A stretch of 64,000 nt of DNA from an uncultured Pseudomonadota bacterium (lineage in GTDB: Bacteria; Pseudomonadota; Gammaproteobacteria; Steroidobacterales; Steroidobacteraceae). Below, one piece after another: positions 44,940 through 64,000 of the stretch (within the stretch, counting starts at the first letter, position 1; each line of letters begins with the position of its first letter). The stretch is from positions 36,286-100,285 of the forward strand of contig CAWHWV010000008.1 of NCBI GenBank assembly GCA_963833085.1, read 5' to 3'. Made by a program: the position numbers and the translations under genes. Under the pieces are notes generated by a model. That model ran no database searches, was not told the DNA's origin, and saw only the letters and a list, made by a program, of their open reading frames with translations.

Positions 44940-45015
44940 AGCAAGTTAGCTCAGTGGTTAGAGCAACGGTCCTATAAACCGTCTGTCGCGGGTTCGACTC
45001 CCGTACTTGTTACCA
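44940..45015 (+). tRNA. tRNA-Ile-like, anticodon UAU, with C at position 33 (atypical)
   Basis: A clean cloverleaf: acceptor AGCAAGT/ACTTGTT, A73, encoded CCA, D arm GCTC-AGTGGTTA-GAGC, anticodon stem ACGGT/ACCGT, loop CCTATAA, T arm GCGGG-TTCGACT-CCCGT. Confidence 0.7.
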
Positions 45016-54209: not shown

Positions 54210-54626
54210 TCAATCTCCGGGGACGTTGAATCGACTTCGCGGTATCTCGGCTATTGCTGAGATTTCAATCAGCAAGTCCGGATGATAAAGGCGAACGACT
54301 TGCACGGTCGTCGTCACGGGGTAGGGCTCCGAAAAGAACTCCCTGCGGATGTCTCCTGCTGCCATGAACTGCTCGATATCGGTCGCATATTGGGTCAGCG
54401 ACACAATATCTGACATTTCTCCCCCGATGGATGCCAACACAGCTTTAATGTTCTCGAGCGTCTTCCGTAGTTGGACTCGCATGTCACCCTTGCCGACGAC
54501 CTGGCCATCGCGATCAAGCGCAACCTGGCCCTTCAGATGAGCGAGCTGCCCTCCCTCGTGGATTTTGACCATGGAGAATGTGCCGAAGGGCTTCCATACC
54601 GTAGAGGGATTATAACTTTTGGCCAT
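54210..54626 (-). CDS. RidA/YjgF/L-PSP family protein
   Basis: 138 aa from the ATG at 54626 with its own AGGA RBS: MAKSYNPSTVWKPFGTFSMV…GDMRVQLRKTLENIKAVLAS…IVSLTQY…TTVQV…LIEISAIA. Confidence 0.8.
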   Translation of the reverse strand: MAKSYNPSTVWKPFGTFSMVKIHEGGQLAHLKGQVALDRDGQVVGKGDMRVQLRKTLENIKAVLASIGGEMSDIVSLTQYATDIEQFMAAGDIRREFFSEPYPVTTTVQVVRLYHPDLLIEISAIAEIPRSRFNVPGD

Positions 54627-54857
54627 TTCAGTCCTCGGACCTCTCCCGTCTAGGCGGCGGCGCACGTCGGCCAGGACATCGGCCGCGAGCCGGCCGCGAA
54701 TTCTATCGACATAGTAGGCTTTCACGCGGCGGTCGAGTTCAGCCTTTTGCTCCGCAGTGACAGGAAGCGCTTTGCGATCCTCAGCGATGCTATCCCATAG
54801 GTTTTCGACGAGCTTTATGCGCTCTTCGAGCGGTAACTGTTGCAAATTGGCGTTCAT
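54627..54857 (-). other. addiction-module antitoxin-component-like segment reading in frame into ridA with no stop codon
   Basis: MNANLQQLPLEERIKLVENLWDSIAEDRKALPVTAEQKAELDRRV… is the pattern of the small 'putative addiction module component' family. The ORF track shows one continuous 215-aa ORF (54857..54210). Confidence 0.5.
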
Positions 54858-58301: not shown

Positions 58302-58977
<676 letters not shown>

Positions 58978-59303
58978 TCTTCGGGCTCACATAACTGGCG
59001 CGCTGGATCTGATCAAACAAAATGGCACAGAAGTTCTGCCATGAGAAAGCCCCGTCAAACTTCATACTGAAAATACGTGACAGATGCTGGAGTCAGTCTG
59101 CGCCGCATTGCAACATCGAGGATGGCGATGTACCAGAAGCTCATTTGTGTTCTGGTTCGCAGCTTTGAGCTCTCCCCTGTAGACATAACCCCACACGTGG
59201 GTGTAATAAGTAGCGCCTCGAGGGCGTATATTTGGCGTTGGGCAGAGGCCGGACGTGGACCGCAACTGGGGCAGGGCCGTTTAAAATAAGGAAGAGGGCG
59301 TAC

Positions 59304-60491
59304 GTGACTTTGATATCACCGGGAGGTCGGCTTCCGTGGCACTCAGCGCCACGGCGATGGGGACACAGATTGCACTCGCAATGTTCCTACATGGCAATGT
59401 TCCCACCCGCATTGCCGCATTTCCTCATCCGGTGGCTCACGGACCCTGGAGAGGTGGTTTACGACCCATTCAGCGGTCGCGGGACGGTCCTTCTTGAAGC
59501 CGGATTGCTTAAGCGAATCCCGATCGGTTCCGATGCCAATCCGCTGGCCTGGATTCTCAGCGCATCAAAAGCCTCGCCTCCAGACCGCAAAAGTGCCCTA
59601 AGGCGCATAGCTGAACTCGAAAAGACCAAGCCCCTCCGGGGCCTGAGCGACGTGCCAGCACACATCCGGCAGCTTTTTGACCCTGGAGTACTCGCACAAC
59701 TATTGGCGATTCGGAGAGATCTGCGGCCAGCGCGTACAGTAGACCGGTTTCTCCTCGCCACCCTTTGCGGAATTCTTCACGCCAATGCTCGGAAGGACGG
59801 CACACCTCGCGGCCTAACGGTAGCGATGCCGAACACTTTCTCCATGTCTCCGCGCTACGTTGCTAACTATATAAAGGACAAGAACCTGCGGCCACCGCAG
59901 GTCGACGTCGTGGAGGCTCTCGAAGGGCGCGTCAAGGATCTTCTGATGTCCGCCCCGATTCAAACCCACGGCGCTGCTTGGCTGGGCGACGCACGTGACA
60001 CGAGCTATTGGCCCCAGCGGACGCCTAAGGCATCACTAATACTCACATCCCCGCCTTACTTGCGCGTGATGAAATACGGGAAGATGAACTGGATTCGCGC
60101 TTGGTTGATTGGATCAGACCCTCATTTAATCGACGGAAGACTCTTCGCGTCCACCTCACTCCAGCGGTATATCGATTTCATGAGGCAAGTTCTCGTCGCT
60201 CTACGCAGAAAACTTCGTCCGGACGGCCGTATCTGTCTTGTGATTGGGGACGTGCGGGAACGTGAGGGCAATAGAAACCTGGCCGCCGCCGTTATTCGCC
60301 ATTGCTTGCCGCACACAGACCTACGAGTCCAAACCATACTCGCAGACCGCCTACCCGTTGAGCATAAAGTGAGCCGAATCTGGGGAGACACTAGGGGACA
60401 GGCGACAAGTATCGACCGCGTAATTGTCTTAGGCGGCCCCAAGGCGGGAGAGTTACCAGACGCACCCGCGATCGATTGGGCGACCGCATGA
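59304..60491 (+). CDS. DNA methyltransferase (N4-C or N6-A; motif I before motif IV)
   Basis: The GTG at 59304 follows an AGGAAGAGGG RBS. …MFPPALPHFLIRWLTDPGEVVYDPFSGRGTVLLEA is the AdoMet motif, and …LILTSPPYLRV is the catalytic (S/D)PPY motif about 200 aa later. Confidence 0.85.
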   Translation: MTLISPGGRLPWHSAPRRWGHRLHSQCSYMAMFPPALPHFLIRWLTDPGEVVYDPFSGRGTVLLEAGLLKRIPIGSDANPLAWILSASKASPPDRKSALRRIAELEKTKPLRGLSDVPAHIRQLFDPGVLAQLLAIRRDLRPARTVDRFLLATLCGILHANARKDGTPRGLTVAMPNTFSMSPRYVANYIKDKNLRPPQVDVVEALEGRVKDLLMSAPIQTHGAAWLGDARDTSYWPQRTPKASLILTSPPYLRVMKYGKMNWIRAWLIGSDPHLIDGRLFASTSLQRYIDFMRQVLVALRRKLRPDGRICLVIGDVREREGNRNLAAAVIRHCLPHTDLRVQTILADRLPVEHKVSRIWGDTRGQATSIDRVIVLGGPKAGELPDAPAIDWATA

Positions 60492-60507
60492 CGCAGGTAA
60501 ATTCCAG

Positions 60508-62439
60508 ATGAGCGATATTACCGAGAAGTTACGGGCCCTTGCTTCCACCAATATTTTTAAGGATGGCAGAGATCCTGAGACCTTCATAGGGAGGCCGTTC
60601 TACTTTGATTACGGGACTGTGAAGGTCCTTGTGAACGATAAGTGGAAACACCGAGCAGGAGGTATCCCTGCCGGGACGTTCTTGCTGTGCTCATATGACA
60701 GCGAAGCGGGCGTTGAGGAAATGGTTCTAGTGCGGGTACTTGGGCCGACAGCACTACCAACCGACTCCGACGTCGTCGCGTCTATGGTCGAGCATTACAA
60801 AGAAGACCAGCCGCCCGGCGGTTCCACAGGAAAGCCGCTCGATAGCTTCACTCGATATGAATTCATGTTTTCCGGATTAGAGTGCCGCGTCCTTGGTACG
60901 TACTATTATCAGAACGACAAAACAGTCTTCGGAGCGGACGTCGAGAACTTCTACAGCGCTCATAACTACTCCGTCTATAAGCCGAAAGGGAAAGTACTCG
61001 AATATATTGTGAATTTTCGCGAGGGAGACGGGATACCTGGTGGGCCGGATCAAGTTCGCCTTGGCAGCGTGAGATATAGTGCTTCTCGGCGTTTCGGCAT
61101 GGGCCCCGACGTTCCCATATACGTCTCACCCCTCGATTTCGTCGGAAAACGAACGGCGCTTTTCGGAATGACCCGAACGGGTAAGTCCAATTCGGTAAAA
61201 AAGATCATCGAGTCAGTAAAGGAGTTGTCTGCGAAGGACGTCAACGGTCCAGATGCGCGTCCCCTAAGGGCGGTTGGGCAAATCATCTTCGACATTAACG
61301 GGGAGTATGCGAACGCCAATCAGCAGGATGAGGGAACTGCAATATTCGAGATGTTTAAGGCGGAGACGACGCGCTACTCGTTACTTGAAAAGCCGGGTTT
61401 CCAGGTTATGAAATTGAATTTCTACCGAGATCTCGAAGCCGGCTTTGGACTCATTCAGAGCCTGCTTGCCGAAGAAACTGGTGATTACGTCAAGAGTTTC
61501 TTGGCGATTGAGCTGTCGGAGCCGGAGGAAGGCGACAAAGCAGTCGCGGTCAGGCGCAATCGGGTAATCGCTGCGTATAAGGCGATACTCTATCGGGCAG
61601 GCTTTGCACCGGATGGCCAGAAGGTCAAATTCGAAGGGAACAAGGACATCAATGCGATCGCTGGAGGGAAGGACCCTTCAAACGGGCTCACCTACGGAGA
61701 AGCCGCCGATTGGTTTTCTGCAATCTGGGACGCCTACGACGATGATCCGTACTTCGCAAATTATCGGCGAACAAAGGGGAAGGAGTGGGCCGACGAAGAT
61801 CTGAAAGCCGCCCTAAAGATGCTAACCAGAAAGACGAAACCAGGGGGAACCGCGAGCGTCTCCGGTTATACGAAGCTACGCAAATTCAAGGACTATCATT
61901 CGCCGACAAACGAATCGTCATTCGAGTCTGACATTGTAGGCAAGCTTCGAGCTGGCGCCATCGTTATTGTTGATTTGTCGCAGGGCGACCCACAATTACA
62001 GAGGACTTACTCTGAGCGAATCTGTCGCAGGATCTTTGGCGATGCCATGGAGCGGTTCATCGGCAATGAGGCGGCGAACTACATTCAGTTGTACTTCGAA
62101 GAAGCCCATAATCTCTTCCCGAAGAAGGACGACAAGGATCTGAGCCAAATCTACAACCGATTGGCCAAGGAGGGTGCGAAGTTGAGACTTGGACTCGTGT
62201 ACGCGACCCAGGAGGTAAGCTCGATCTCTAGCAACGTTCTGAAGAATACACAGAACTGGTTCGTTTCCCATCTAAACAATCAAGATGAACTCAAAGAGGT
62301 GCAGAAATTCTACGATTTCGAGGATTTCGTTGACAGTCTCCGACGCGCACCCGATCGTGGCTTCATCCGGATGAAGACCTATTCCAACGCCTTCATAGTG
62401 CCGGTTCAAATAGATCGGTTTCAAGCAAAGACGCTTTAG
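60508..62439 (+). CDS. HerA-like (DUF87/FtsK-HerA superfamily) ATPase
   Basis: An N-terminal barrel-like region (GRPFYFDYGTVKVLVND…MVLVRVLG), Walker A GMTRTGKS (61165-61188), Walker B/DEAH-like IQLYFEEAHNLFP, and LGLVYATQEVSSIS…NWFVSHLNNQDE. Confidence 0.8.
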   Translation: MSDITEKLRALASTNIFKDGRDPETFIGRPFYFDYGTVKVLVNDKWKHRAGGIPAGTFLLCSYDSEAGVEEMVLVRVLGPTALPTDSDVVASMVEHYKEDQPPGGSTGKPLDSFTRYEFMFSGLECRVLGTYYYQNDKTVFGADVENFYSAHNYSVYKPKGKVLEYIVNFREGDGIPGGPDQVRLGSVRYSASRRFGMGPDVPIYVSPLDFVGKRTALFGMTRTGKSNSVKKIIESVKELSAKDVNGPDARPLRAVGQIIFDINGEYANANQQDEGTAIFEMFKAETTRYSLLEKPGFQVMKLNFYRDLEAGFGLIQSLLAEETGDYVKSFLAIELSEPEEGDKAVAVRRNRVIAAYKAILYRAGFAPDGQKVKFEGNKDINAIAGGKDPSNGLTYGEAADWFSAIWDAYDDDPYFANYRRTKGKEWADEDLKAALKMLTRKTKPGGTASVSGYTKLRKFKDYHSPTNESSFESDIVGKLRAGAIVIVDLSQGDPQLQRTYSERICRRIFGDAMERFIGNEAANYIQLYFEEAHNLFPKKDDKDLSQIYNRLAKEGAKLRLGLVYATQEVSSISSNVLKNTQNWFVSHLNNQDELKEVQKFYDFEDFVDSLRRAPDRGFIRMKTYSNAFIVPVQIDRFQAKTL

Positions 62440-62440
62440 T

Positions 62441-63778
62441 ATGGGATATAGTCAGGTAAAGGGACGGAAGCCATTCGAACGTGCCAGCAAGATTGCCCAC
62501 GCCGAGATCCTGAACAATCCCGACGTGCGCGAGTTCGTCGCTCATTGCGTGCTCCCATCTGCGCCGGATCAAGGACACTTAGAAGCGTTGCAAAAGCGCG
62601 TCCCGGAGGCAGAGACTAGGATTCGATCCGTTATCGCTGTCGATGGCGGGATGACGGAAGTCCCGGTTCGAAAGGAGTTTCCAAGCGCGGCTTTTGCTTT
62701 TATGACCTTTGGGCCTCTTTGGCTAGAACTTCGAGACTTGCAGGAACTTGACCGACAGCCGTTCATCGGTCCCGAAGACATGGCCCGGTTGAAGAACCTC
62801 ACGCGGTACAGCTTTCCGGTGCCGGCAAAGTGCATCAGAGCGGGAGACGGCTCAAGCTTCAGTCACGGAGTCCGCAAAACAATCCACGAGTTTTTGACGA
62901 TAAGACACAAGGATCTTGGTCAGGCTCTTGCGTGGCTCCTATTCAGAGGCTGGCAGCCGCACTCGCAATCTCCCAGATGGGTTGTTCCCCAGTGTCCAAG
63001 TGCTGGTTGCGACGGAGTACAGATCACGTTTCAGGCTGGCGGGCCTACGGAAATTTCGTGCCCCGGTTGTGGTTCGCCAGCTTATCTGGCCGATGCCCTT
63101 CGTCTTTATGAGCGCATAGACGAAGAGCAGGGCGCGGGCGGCGTCATGGCATATCTGCTGTCAACGCTCGAGCAGCTTGTGCTAGTTCATATCATTCGCA
63201 CCGTTCTGCGAGTGAAACCCACTTTGCTACGGGAGGTACTGCTAATAAAGGACGGCCCTCTTGCTTTCTTTGGCGTCGTTGCGCCGCTTCGGAAGCCGAT
63301 GCAGGAGCTCATGAGTTATCTGTCAGACAAAGACAATGGGCGACCATCAATTTGTCTCGTCGGCCTAGAAAAGAGCGGAGCGTTCGTCGAACACGCAACC
63401 CTCATCGAACCAGCGCTCAAGCCAGGGCATTGCTTATTGCTCAGCAATGATTACATCTATAAGTACATCCAGCCAGGAGATCCCACCGGAAGTCCGTTCG
63501 GGCACAACACCTACTATGGCGCGAAGCTGATCTTCAAGAGCGCCCGTGGCGACGTATACGTGGCTACTATCCCCACAATACAGTCTTCCTCGAGCCCCCA
63601 GATGGCAGACTTGATGAACGGGCCGGAGGTCCTGCATGTGACTGGTGAATTGCGCTGCTCCATGTATGACCATGCGTTGGTCCCGGTCGTCCTTGCCAAC
63701 CGCTTGGTTTCCTTGGCGGATGTTCCGAGTTCCGAAATATTGGCACGTTTTGCCCGCTCGGCAGTCGCACCCGCTTAA
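62441..63778 (+). CDS. NurA-like nuclease with an inserted Cys4 zinc ribbon
   Basis: It starts 1 nt after the ATPase stop. It carries SVIAVDGGMTEV (the NurA 'DG[ST]' block), LLIKDGPLAFFG, VGLEKSGAFVEH and CPSAGC…CPGC (62993-63070). Confidence 0.55.
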   Translation: MGYSQVKGRKPFERASKIAHAEILNNPDVREFVAHCVLPSAPDQGHLEALQKRVPEAETRIRSVIAVDGGMTEVPVRKEFPSAAFAFMTFGPLWLELRDLQELDRQPFIGPEDMARLKNLTRYSFPVPAKCIRAGDGSSFSHGVRKTIHEFLTIRHKDLGQALAWLLFRGWQPHSQSPRWVVPQCPSAGCDGVQITFQAGGPTEISCPGCGSPAYLADALRLYERIDEEQGAGGVMAYLLSTLEQLVLVHIIRTVLRVKPTLLREVLLIKDGPLAFFGVVAPLRKPMQELMSYLSDKDNGRPSICLVGLEKSGAFVEHATLIEPALKPGHCLLLSNDYIYKYIQPGDPTGSPFGHNTYYGAKLIFKSARGDVYVATIPTIQSSSSPQMADLMNGPEVLHVTGELRCSMYDHALVPVVLANRLVSLADVPSSEILARFARSAVAPA

Positions 63779-63925
63779 TGACTGGAGTAAGCAACACTGT
63801 TTCCTCGCGGCCGAGTCACTGTGCACATTCGGGCACGTGGTCTGACAGCAGCCGGAGAGCCCACAAGAATCTGCAAAGCATCGAGGCAATAGCTTCAGCG
63901 ACTCAGTGAGCCCACGGAGACAGGA

Positions 63926-64000
63926 ATGAGTCCCTTTAAACAGGTATCCACCAAAAAGAAAGACTACCGTACGCCGCTTGAGCTGTTCCCGGATCTTCGC
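63926..64000 (+). CDS. 5' end of a further gene (truncated by the window edge)
   Basis: GGAGA lies 8 nt upstream of the ATG, giving MSPFKQVSTKKKDYRTPLELFPDLR…. It is on the same strand as the MTase-HerA-NurA genes. Confidence 0.3.
   Translation, partial: MSPFKQVSTKKKDYRTPLELFPDLR

Follow-up and report, generated by a model that had tools for sequence, protein, structure and literature searches.

Gene content of the cassette

We analyzed a 64,000-nucleotide (nt) stretch of DNA (hereafter, the window) from an uncultured bacterium of the family Steroidobacteraceae. Close to its 3' end lies a cassette of three genes on one strand (59304-63778, +), which encode a DNA methyltransferase (MTase), a HerA/DUF87 ATPase of 643 amino acids (aa), and a predicted NurA-type nuclease of 445 aa (Table 1). 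The genes are tightly packed: the MTase and ATPase genes meet in a TGA-16 nt-ATG junction and the ATPase and nuclease genes in a TAG-1 nt-ATG junction. Because the nuclease gene starts 1 nt past the ATPase stop codon, the two are likely translationally coupled. The guanine-cytosine (GC) content of the cassette is 54.3%, compared with 63.8% for window positions 1-53500. An earlier interpretation made from the letters alone (hereafter, the sequence-only reading) had described the same gaps and the same AT-richer DNA; both agree with our measurements, and all the motifs it quoted were located at checked coordinates.

The open reading frame (ORF) of the MTase offers three possible starts. We find GTG 59304 to be the best of these, because the ribosome-binding site AAGGAAGAGG lies 6 nt 5' of it and because alignments with homologs begin at residue 10-12 of the resulting protein. 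This is also the start chosen in the sequence-only reading, which we prefer over the ATG at 59397 of the public gene call. Promoter and terminator scans gave results no better than shuffled sequence.

Table 1. Coordinates of the cassette genes, their motifs, and adjacent genes in the window.
Feature	Coordinates	Strand	Remarks
Phd/YefM antitoxin and PIN (VapC-like) toxin	58311-58977		Immediately upstream of the cassette
MTase ORF	59232..60491	+	395 aa if GTG 59304 is the start; other starts TTG 59232 and ATG 59397
AdoMet motif I, DPFSGRG	59463-59483	+	MTase; coordinates verified
Catalytic motif IV, TSPPY	60045-60059	+	MTase; coordinates verified
HerA/FtsK-superfamily ATPase	60508..62439	+	643 aa
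Walker A, GMTRTGKS	61165-61188	+	ATPase residues 220-227, K226
Walker B-like, LYFEEAH	62089-62109	+	ATPase residues 528-534
C-terminal block, VYATQE	62197-62214	+	ATPase
C-terminal block, NWFVSHLNNQDE	62254-62289	+	ATPase
Nuclease with predicted NurA fold	62441..63778	+	445 aa
IAVDGG block (D68)	62633-62650	+	Nuclease
Zinc-ribbon-like four-cysteine insertion, CPSAGC...CPGC	62993..63070	+	Nuclease C185, C190, C207, C210
KDGPL block (D271)	63248-63262	+	Nuclease
EKSG block (E310)	63368-63379	+	Nuclease
Gene 4 (helicase), start	63926..64000	+	Runs off the window; full gene at 5607-8222 of locus L001, an identical contig

Predicted identities of the three proteins

The MTase matches the Pfam family N6_N4_Mtase above its curated cutoff (E 8.8e-17), as the sequence-only reading had anticipated. 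The match falls into two stretches that are permuted relative to the profile. Motif I, which binds S-adenosylmethionine (AdoMet, also SAM), precedes motif IV by ~195 residues, the alpha-type order. A REBASE-derived type II model of PADLOC (MTase_II, PDLC03325) matches over the full length of the protein (E 1.2e-38). As for generic restriction-modification (R-M) membership, the AdoMet-binding DPFSGRG and the catalytic TSPPY are both present. The SPPY motif suggests that the enzyme is specific for N4-cytosine (m4C). This guess, first made in the sequence-only reading, is reasonable, as both of the main MTase families found with the cassette carry SPP[YF], but it is not general, as the MTase of a Vibrio prophage has a Dam-like DPPY.

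The assignment of the second protein to HerA/DUF87 holds: it scores 57.4 bits against Pfam DUF87 (PF01935), which has a cutoff of 23.2 (E 2.9e-15), and its Walker A and LYFEEAH motifs are invariant in 27 homologs. PADLOC HerA models match with E values down to 1.9e-21, and the "anti-phage HerA" models of PADLOC and NCBIfam match the C-terminal region. The protein has 3753 homologs at E ≤ 0.001. The best sequence match in the Protein Data Bank (PDB) is TdpA (8wet; ~19% identity), the ATPase of the TdpABC system, with E 2.6e-21 when searched as a single sequence and 4.6e-19 as a profile; the runner-up has E 6.5e-9 and 4.3e-13, respectively. Foldseek also places TdpA chains at ranks 1 to 6 (E 9.3e-18), with a low-confidence AlphaFold model [predicted local distance difference test (pLDDT) 63, template-modeling score (TM) ~0.4]. 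Owing to the poor model, we use the Foldseek rank order alone, and this order agrees with the sequence search. TdpA is followed by the HerA of DUF4297-HerA, Thermococcus HerA-NurA, Sir2-HerA, and Sulfolobus HerA. All 50 matches listed for this model of pLDDT 63 (E ≤ 7e-11, out of 87 that reach E ≤ 0.001) are chains of HerA type.

By sequence, the third protein falls short of Pfam membership: it matches NurA (PF09376) with E 0.023 and 14.6 bits, under the 21-bit cutoff, and no PADLOC or NCBIfam model matches it. Its relatives come closer. Pfam NurA is matched by 23 of 30 family members at E ≤ 0.1 (best E 9.7e-8), several homologs carry a precomputed PF09376 hit, and the RefSeq product name of homologs is "DNA double-strand break repair nuclease NurA". 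Linking the protein to NurA and TdpB required a structure model, because searches of the PDB by sequence (single sequence and a 30-sequence profile) gave only noise, with no similarity to TdpB. The AlphaFold (AF2) model, built on 30 homologs, has a pLDDT of 82 and a predicted TM of 0.83. It matches five NurA-type structures (six chains) with Foldseek probabilities of 0.97-1.00, and no other PDB structure at E ≤ 0.001. The top match is TdpB (8wfd_G; E 1.2e-8, TM 0.48/0.58, 16% identity), and the others are D. radiodurans NurA (7f6d_G; E 1.8e-5), Thermotoga TM1739 (1zup), S. solfataricus NurA (2ygk), and P. furiosus NurA (3taz). Judged by this model, the nuclease is NurA-type at the fold level, though below the Pfam threshold. 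The NurA assignment of the sequence-only reading is thus upheld by the fold and by the relatives, but not by the Pfam score of the protein itself.

Five residues of the nuclease (D68, E244, D271, E310, and H318) are invariant in 40 homologs, down to ~25% identity, and are candidate catalytic residues. They fall in the DG, DGxL, and EK blocks that are typical of NurA. The nuclease also contains a zinc-ribbon-like insertion, whose four cysteines are conserved in at least 97% of the 40 homologs, including the Deferribacter and haloarchaeal copies described below. The model has short strands around this insertion (residues 180-215), which is a candidate for a DNA- or modification-reading element.

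Conservation of the trio and exchange of its methyltransferase

The nuclease family is large. A word-indexed search returned at least 1260 proteins at E ≤ 0.001. The matches of an exhaustive profile search form 918 clusters at 50% identity, of which 272 reach E ≤ 1e-30. When one genome per species was scanned, 42 loci were obtained, in Proteobacteria, Planctomycetota, Nitrospirota, Actinomycetota, Acidobacteriota, Gemmatimonadota, Bacillota, Bacteroidota, Cyanobacteriota, and Patescibacteria. A further 80 loci came from metagenomes. In all, the distribution of the family is patchy and covers at least 12 phyla plus Archaea.

We find that the ATPase, nuclease, and MTase form a conserved unit across phyla. 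In the genome scan, wherever the nuclease match is full-length and the upstream flank intact, the ATPase gene is directly upstream. In the metagenome set, adjacency was counted only where the flank was long enough. There the ATPase gene is directly upstream in 46 of 48 loci, the two misses being ORF-calling or frameshift cases. An MTase gene is adjacent in all 41 metagenome loci (upstream in 37 and downstream in 4, of which 2 have it on the same strand and 2 on the opposite one) and in ~27 of 34 genome or plasmid loci. The sequence-only reading had named co-occurrence across genomes as a check on the trio, and these counts bear the trio out.

The MTase itself is exchanged. Three unrelated families occupy its slot, and the genes occur in three orders. 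Closer relatives have an alpha-type SPPY MTase like that of the window directly upstream of the ATPase-nuclease pair. This type is found in Proteobacteria, Planctomycetes, Nitrospirota, Actinomycetota, Acidobacteriota, Gemmatimonadota, Deferribacter, and one haloarchaeon. In Bacillota, Patescibacteria, and Bacteroides, the same position is held by an N6_N4 MTase of ~330 aa with beta motif order and SPPF. In a neighbor-joining tree of the nuclease, loci with alpha-type MTases are basal and loci with beta-type MTases form one clade. Since MTase families have been swapped and the nuclease tree tracks the MTase type, the coupling would run through a mark on DNA and not through a fixed protein partner.

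The association with an MTase is kept even in distant homologs (25-27% identity) from Deferribacter, a haloarchaeon, and Vibrio phages. The megaplasmid pDF308 of Deferribacter desulfuricans (L044, 4126-7924) has the order MTase, DUF87, NurA. Its DUF87/HerA gene is interrupted by an IS200/IS605 tnpA-tnpB element, and this copy of the system is predicted to be inactivated by the insertion sequence (IS). On a haloarchaeal plasmid, the order is DUF87, NurA-like gene, MTase. A scan of IMG/VR found no close relatives, while a more sensitive tblastn search of GenBank phages found two Vibrio prophages. In Vibrio phage 10N.286.54.E5_PE002 (L049, PQ189353.1; 1309-5751), HerA is annotated as two overlapping coding sequences. 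The NurA-like gene comes next, and then, on the opposite strand, a Dam-like DPPY MTase, which is the third MTase family. This trio sits between the integrase and excisionase of the temperate phage. The nuclease gene is present in the second Vibrio phage (PQ189371) too.

Loci from Nostocales have an 82-aa HTH_3 gene where the MTase would be, and no MTase motif was found within 10 kb. These are L013, L017, L018, L025, L027, L035, and L045, from Nostoc, Calothrix, and Tolypothrix, and several of them are plasmid-borne. One (L017) has a CBASS operon (DncV-like cyclase and SAVED-HNH) directly after the pair.

Genomic setting

Upstream of the cassette in the window, we find genes for an HTH_17 protein, a NikA-like protein, a MobA/VirD2 relaxase, and a Phd antitoxin with a PIN toxin. 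In the public gene call, the PIN gene begins at 58555, which gives an 11-nt overlap with the antitoxin stop. The Phd-VapC and mobilization genes named in the sequence-only reading are therefore present, and so is the defense-island or mobile-element setting it described: low-GC cargo beside a relaxase, Phd-PIN, and the defense candidate PDC-S28. From this gene content, the cassette appears to be cargo of a mobilizable island.

Flanking genes vary between loci, and no fourth gene is conserved. Elsewhere, the neighbors include AbiEi/AbiEii, ResIII, type III and ISP restriction genes, extra MTases, Schlafen-like helicases, phospholipase D (PLD) and PD-(D/E)XK nucleases, and CBASS. Family members also occur on plasmids, and temperate Vibrio phages carry them as cargo between int and xis. 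An AbiEi-AbiEii pair lies directly upstream of the beta-type MTase in L014, L016, L022, L023, and L024 (~5400-7020), from gut-derived Clostridia and one Bacteroides metagenome-assembled genome. The AbiE pair and the MTase-HerA-NurA cassette may travel as one block in these gut-derived loci.

The gene that follows the cassette (gene 4) encodes an 871-aa helicase with DEAD, ResIII, and Helicase_C_2 domains, which PADLOC PDC-S28 matches over its full length (E 1.2e-105). It is preceded by a 147-nt gap and its own GGAGA ribosome-binding site. The sequence-only reading was right about its start and good ribosome-binding site. It had also allowed that the gene may belong to the system, but gene 4 lies beside the pair at none of the 42 genome loci and none of the 80 metagenome loci (122 other loci). 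Its PDC-S28 identity and this absence rule it out as a fourth component, and we regard it as a candidate independent single-gene defense system. In the NCBI/ENA copy of the genome, gene 4 is recorded as products of 620 and 301 aa and may be split or frameshifted there.

Some further genes on this DNA deserve mention. On the L001 contig, ~4.4 kb past the window end, lies a gene (8328-9773, -) for a 481-aa protein that ends in an M78 (ImmA/IrrE) peptidase domain and is matched weakly by the CapP and RmrA models of PADLOC. It is followed by three small ORFs with no assigned function, one of which has a faint Mrr_cat match; together, these genes may be further defense cargo. Upstream, a 215-aa ORF (window 54210-54857, -) combines an "unstable antitoxin" addiction-module domain (residues 7-60) with a RidA/L-PSP endoribonuclease domain (residues 93-204); it could be a true fusion or a pair of genes taken for a single one. 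Last, ARAGORN predicts a tRNA-Ile with anticodon TAT at window 44940-45015, ~9 kb before the drop in GC. A TAT anticodon is unusual, as AUA is decoded in most bacteria by a CAT tRNA that carries lysidine. This tRNA gene could mark an integration site.

Proposed function and alternative explanations

On balance, we think it probable that the cassette is a three-gene, ATP-dependent, R-M-like defense module on mobile DNA, gated by methylation. The MTase (probably m4C, from SPPY) would mark host DNA. The HerA-type ATPase would assemble into a translocating ring and bind the NurA-type nuclease as a dimer, in the manner of TdpAB and archaeal HerA-NurA. The complex would thread DNA and degrade it processively, unless it met the modification, which would block translocation or cleavage. 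Unmethylated phage or plasmid DNA would thus be shredded and self DNA spared. We infer four parts of this scheme: complex formation, the inhibition of the nuclease by methylation as opposed to some other means of telling self from non-self, the modified base, and protection from phages. The strongest argument for a link through methylated DNA comes from evolution: the MTase is kept almost everywhere, yet there have been several changes in its family, its side, and its strand. These changes would be better explained by a Tdp-like "roadblock" mode than by a site-matched endonuclease, because the latter would have to re-evolve its specificity with every swap.

The most serious rival is that the cassette exports or donates DNA. 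Thermus thermophilus HB27 carries on its mobile element ICEth1 an operon of Tth111II/TthHB27I, the NurA-like TTC1878, TdtA (TTC1879), and the methylase TTC1880. According to the published accounts, these genes are co-transcribed, TdtA is a hexameric ATPase of the HerA/FtsK family, TTC1880 is a pfam01555 methylase of ~410 aa, and NurA and TdtA are required for donor-side DNA transfer (transjugation, by a "DNA secretion system") (Blesa et al. 2017, PMC5365140; PMC7767461). By analogy, the ATPase of the window would pump DNA from a donor, the nuclease would process it, and the methylase would be an accessory. The cassette lies directly downstream of a NikA-like gene and a MobA/VirD2 relaxase gene, in mobile DNA of low GC, which fits with this. 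Most loci of the family, however, have no conjugation genes among their immediate neighbors, and have AbiE, restriction, CBASS, helicase, or prophage int-xis settings instead. Furthermore, the trio of the window lacks a Tth111II-like type IIG enzyme, the nearest solved relatives form a defense complex, and the repeated swapping of MTase families, always with retention of an MTase, is hard to square with a dispensable methylase. Taken over the whole family, DNA donation is thus the less likely explanation, and we consider it unlikely for the cassette. Slightly more doubtful still is a guard or abortive infection mechanism, in which the MTase is a sentinel (for instance, a target of anti-restriction proteins from phages or of SAM depletion) and its inhibition frees HerA-NurA to degrade DNA without discrimination and kill the infected cell. 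HerA partners in Sir2-HerA and DUF4297-HerA do act through abortive-type effectors, and the Nostocales pair persists without a linked MTase, under an HTH regulator. Yet three unrelated MTase families, on either strand or side, speak against a specific protein-protein sensing interface. The guard mechanism also reduces to methylation-dependent self-protection, and thereby overlaps with the R-M-like module that we favor.

Two simpler explanations fare worse. The pair could be a housekeeping HerA-NurA for double-strand break repair that lies beside an orphan or ordinary type II MTase, as the fold, the family (HerA-NurA end-resection enzymes), and the RefSeq product name would suggest. We regard this as very improbable. 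The scanned flanks contained no Mre11 or Rad50 genes. The family is spread patchily and by horizontal transfer, with members on plasmids, in prophages, and in low-GC islands; MTase adjacency is near-universal, and one copy is disrupted by an IS and hence dispensable. Even less credible is a chance packing of unrelated island cargo, with an MTase from a degraded R-M system beside a HerA-NurA pair. Defense islands do crowd unrelated systems together, and gene 4 is itself adjacent yet unrelated. But the co-occurrence counts given above, from many phyla and Archaea, effectively refute chance packing, and the gaps of 16 nt and 1 nt and the congruence of the nuclease phylogeny with MTase type also argue against it.

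Several points weigh against the R-M-like module. The function of the family is a prediction, the ATPase structure model is of low confidence, and the nuclease is tied to TdpB by fold (TM 0.48-0.58) with no sequence-level similarity. The modification that TdpAB senses in its motor channel is on the backbone, whereas we propose that base methylation is read by a HerA ring or NurA dimer. The complex would also have to load onto DNA without free ends. The seven Nostocales loci, a monophyletic group inside the beta clade, keep the ATPase-nuclease pair with no linked MTase; a linked MTase is therefore not indispensable, and these systems would have to avoid self-damage without one. In addition, loss of the methylase is reported to be tolerated with only minor effects in ICEth1, the sole experimentally studied operon of like architecture (PMC5365140; PMC7767461). 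The R-M-like logic put forward in the sequence-only reading is accordingly strengthened on one side, by a trio conserved across phyla with an MTase slot refilled by three families, and weakened on the other, by the Nostocales clade and by the minor effect of methylase loss in Thermus.

We also advance, tentatively and with somewhat less than even confidence, a broader proposal. The cassette might be the founding example of a large, unnamed R-M-like class, in which a HerA-NurA "shredder" is gated by base methylation from interchangeable MTases whose marks are roadblocks to a processive motor, with the ICEth1 operon and TdpAB as branches of one superfamily. The proposed class comprises 918 clusters at 50% identity from at least 12 bacterial phyla, Archaea, plasmids, and prophages. 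If the cassette itself works as we propose, it would be a mechanistically distinct form of R-M, which uses no sequence-specific endonuclease and relies on a processive HerA-NurA shredder stopped by host methyl marks. The Tdp principle would then be general and widely transferred, and not a thermophile curiosity bound to phosphorothioation. The free swapping of MTases beside one nuclease pair would be explained, and hundreds of genes annotated as "DUF87 protein" and "double-strand break repair nuclease NurA" would gain a function. The Thermus ICEth1 transjugation operon would be due for reexamination. Such cassettes would also be barriers to transformation and phage therapy that current defense-finding tools do not flag.

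Comparison with known systems

PADLOC v2 assigns no system to the cassette and has no model for the nuclease; as far as this tool is concerned, the system has no existing name, in line with the sequence-only reading. At other loci, RefSeq names the genes "DNA methyltransferase", "DUF87 domain-containing protein", and "double-strand break repair nuclease NurA". We found no description of an MTase-HerA-NurA defense system in the searchable full-text literature. A Hachiman-type assignment was rejected after model searches. MADS is described as an eight-gene operon (mad1-8) in which mad2-4 and mad6-8 are required. The cassette has weak PADLOC matches to mad8 (3.4e-11) and mad2 (6.2e-5), but it has three genes and its nuclease matches no mad model, and we therefore reject this identity.

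Among systems with a HerA-family ATPase, Sir2-HerA (Nezha) and DUF4297-HerA resemble the cassette in using the ATPase as the scaffold or motor of a defense complex. They differ in their effector, which is Sir2 or DUF4297 where the cassette has NurA, and they have no modification enzyme. Assignment to these systems (Gao_Her, Nezha) is also rejected on score, with 56.1 and 40.7 bits against NCBIfam cutoffs of 800 and 850, and on the NurA-like partner. Archaeal and Deinococcus HerA-NurA (PDB 4d2i, 2ygk, 3taz, 7f6d, and 9x1l) share both folds and the operonic pairing. These are, however, housekeeping proteins, linked to Mre11-Rad50 in archaea, with no dedicated MTase, and their similarity to the cassette proteins is much lower than that of TdpAB.

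Type I, type III, ISP, and CglI-type NTP-dependent type II R-M systems likewise combine an MTase with an NTP-driven translocating nuclease, and the MTase of the window matches REBASE-derived type II MTase models. Here the motor is a ring-shaped HerA/FtsK ATPase and not an SF2 helicase, the nuclease is an RNase-H-like NurA and not PD-(D/E)XK, HNH, or PLD, and there is no specificity subunit.

The ICEth1 operon, compared by its published description, shares three domain types with the cassette: a NurA-like nuclease, a HerA/FtsK ATPase, and a pfam01555 methylase. Its gene order is nuclease-ATPase-methylase, with a large type IIG enzyme at the operon head, and its reported role is donor-side DNA transfer and not defense. 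No Tth111II-like type IIG gene is found upstream of the cassette, where Phd-PIN occupies the site.

The closest counterpart is TdpABC (An et al., Nat Chem Biol 2025; PDB 8wet, 8wfd, and 8y1k). Citing papers describe it as a phosphorothioate (PT)-based R-M system with TdpC as its sole modifying component, and one of them places tdp in extremophilic bacteria; TdpAB is the restriction half. As in the cassette, a single modification gene neighbors those of a HerA-type ATPase, the hexameric TdpA, and of a nuclease with the NurA fold, TdpB. Moreover, the ATPase and nuclease of the window have subunits of a single complex (PDB 8wet, 8wfd) as their nearest solved relatives: TdpA is the best match of the ATPase by sequence and fold, and TdpB is the best match of the nuclease by fold only. 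TdpAB reportedly degrades unmodified DNA, and the PT mark is said to block both its translocation and its nuclease activity on self DNA. The differences are clear. The modification gene here encodes an AdoMet-dependent N6_N4 MTase in place of TdpC, and no other modification gene was found in the cassette or its scanned flanks; the cassette is thus not a Tdp system proper. Its mark would be on the base and not on the backbone. TdpB has 358 aa, compared with 445 aa for the window nuclease with its invariant four-cysteine insertion, and the window family is widespread in mesophiles. A search for homologs with a 156-aa TdpA fragment returned 15 fragmentary proteins, and the two contigs read carried truncated genes at contig ends or degraded loci.

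The sequence-only reading knew of no described system that couples HerA-NurA to a dedicated MTase. Taken for dedicated modification enzymes in general, this does not stand, since TdpABC makes the coupling via phosphorothioation and ICEth1 has a NurA-TdtA-methylase operon. The concept is therefore not new: Tdp is a like machine gated by another modification, and ICEth1 has the same domain trio. The cassette probably works like a Tdp system without being one.

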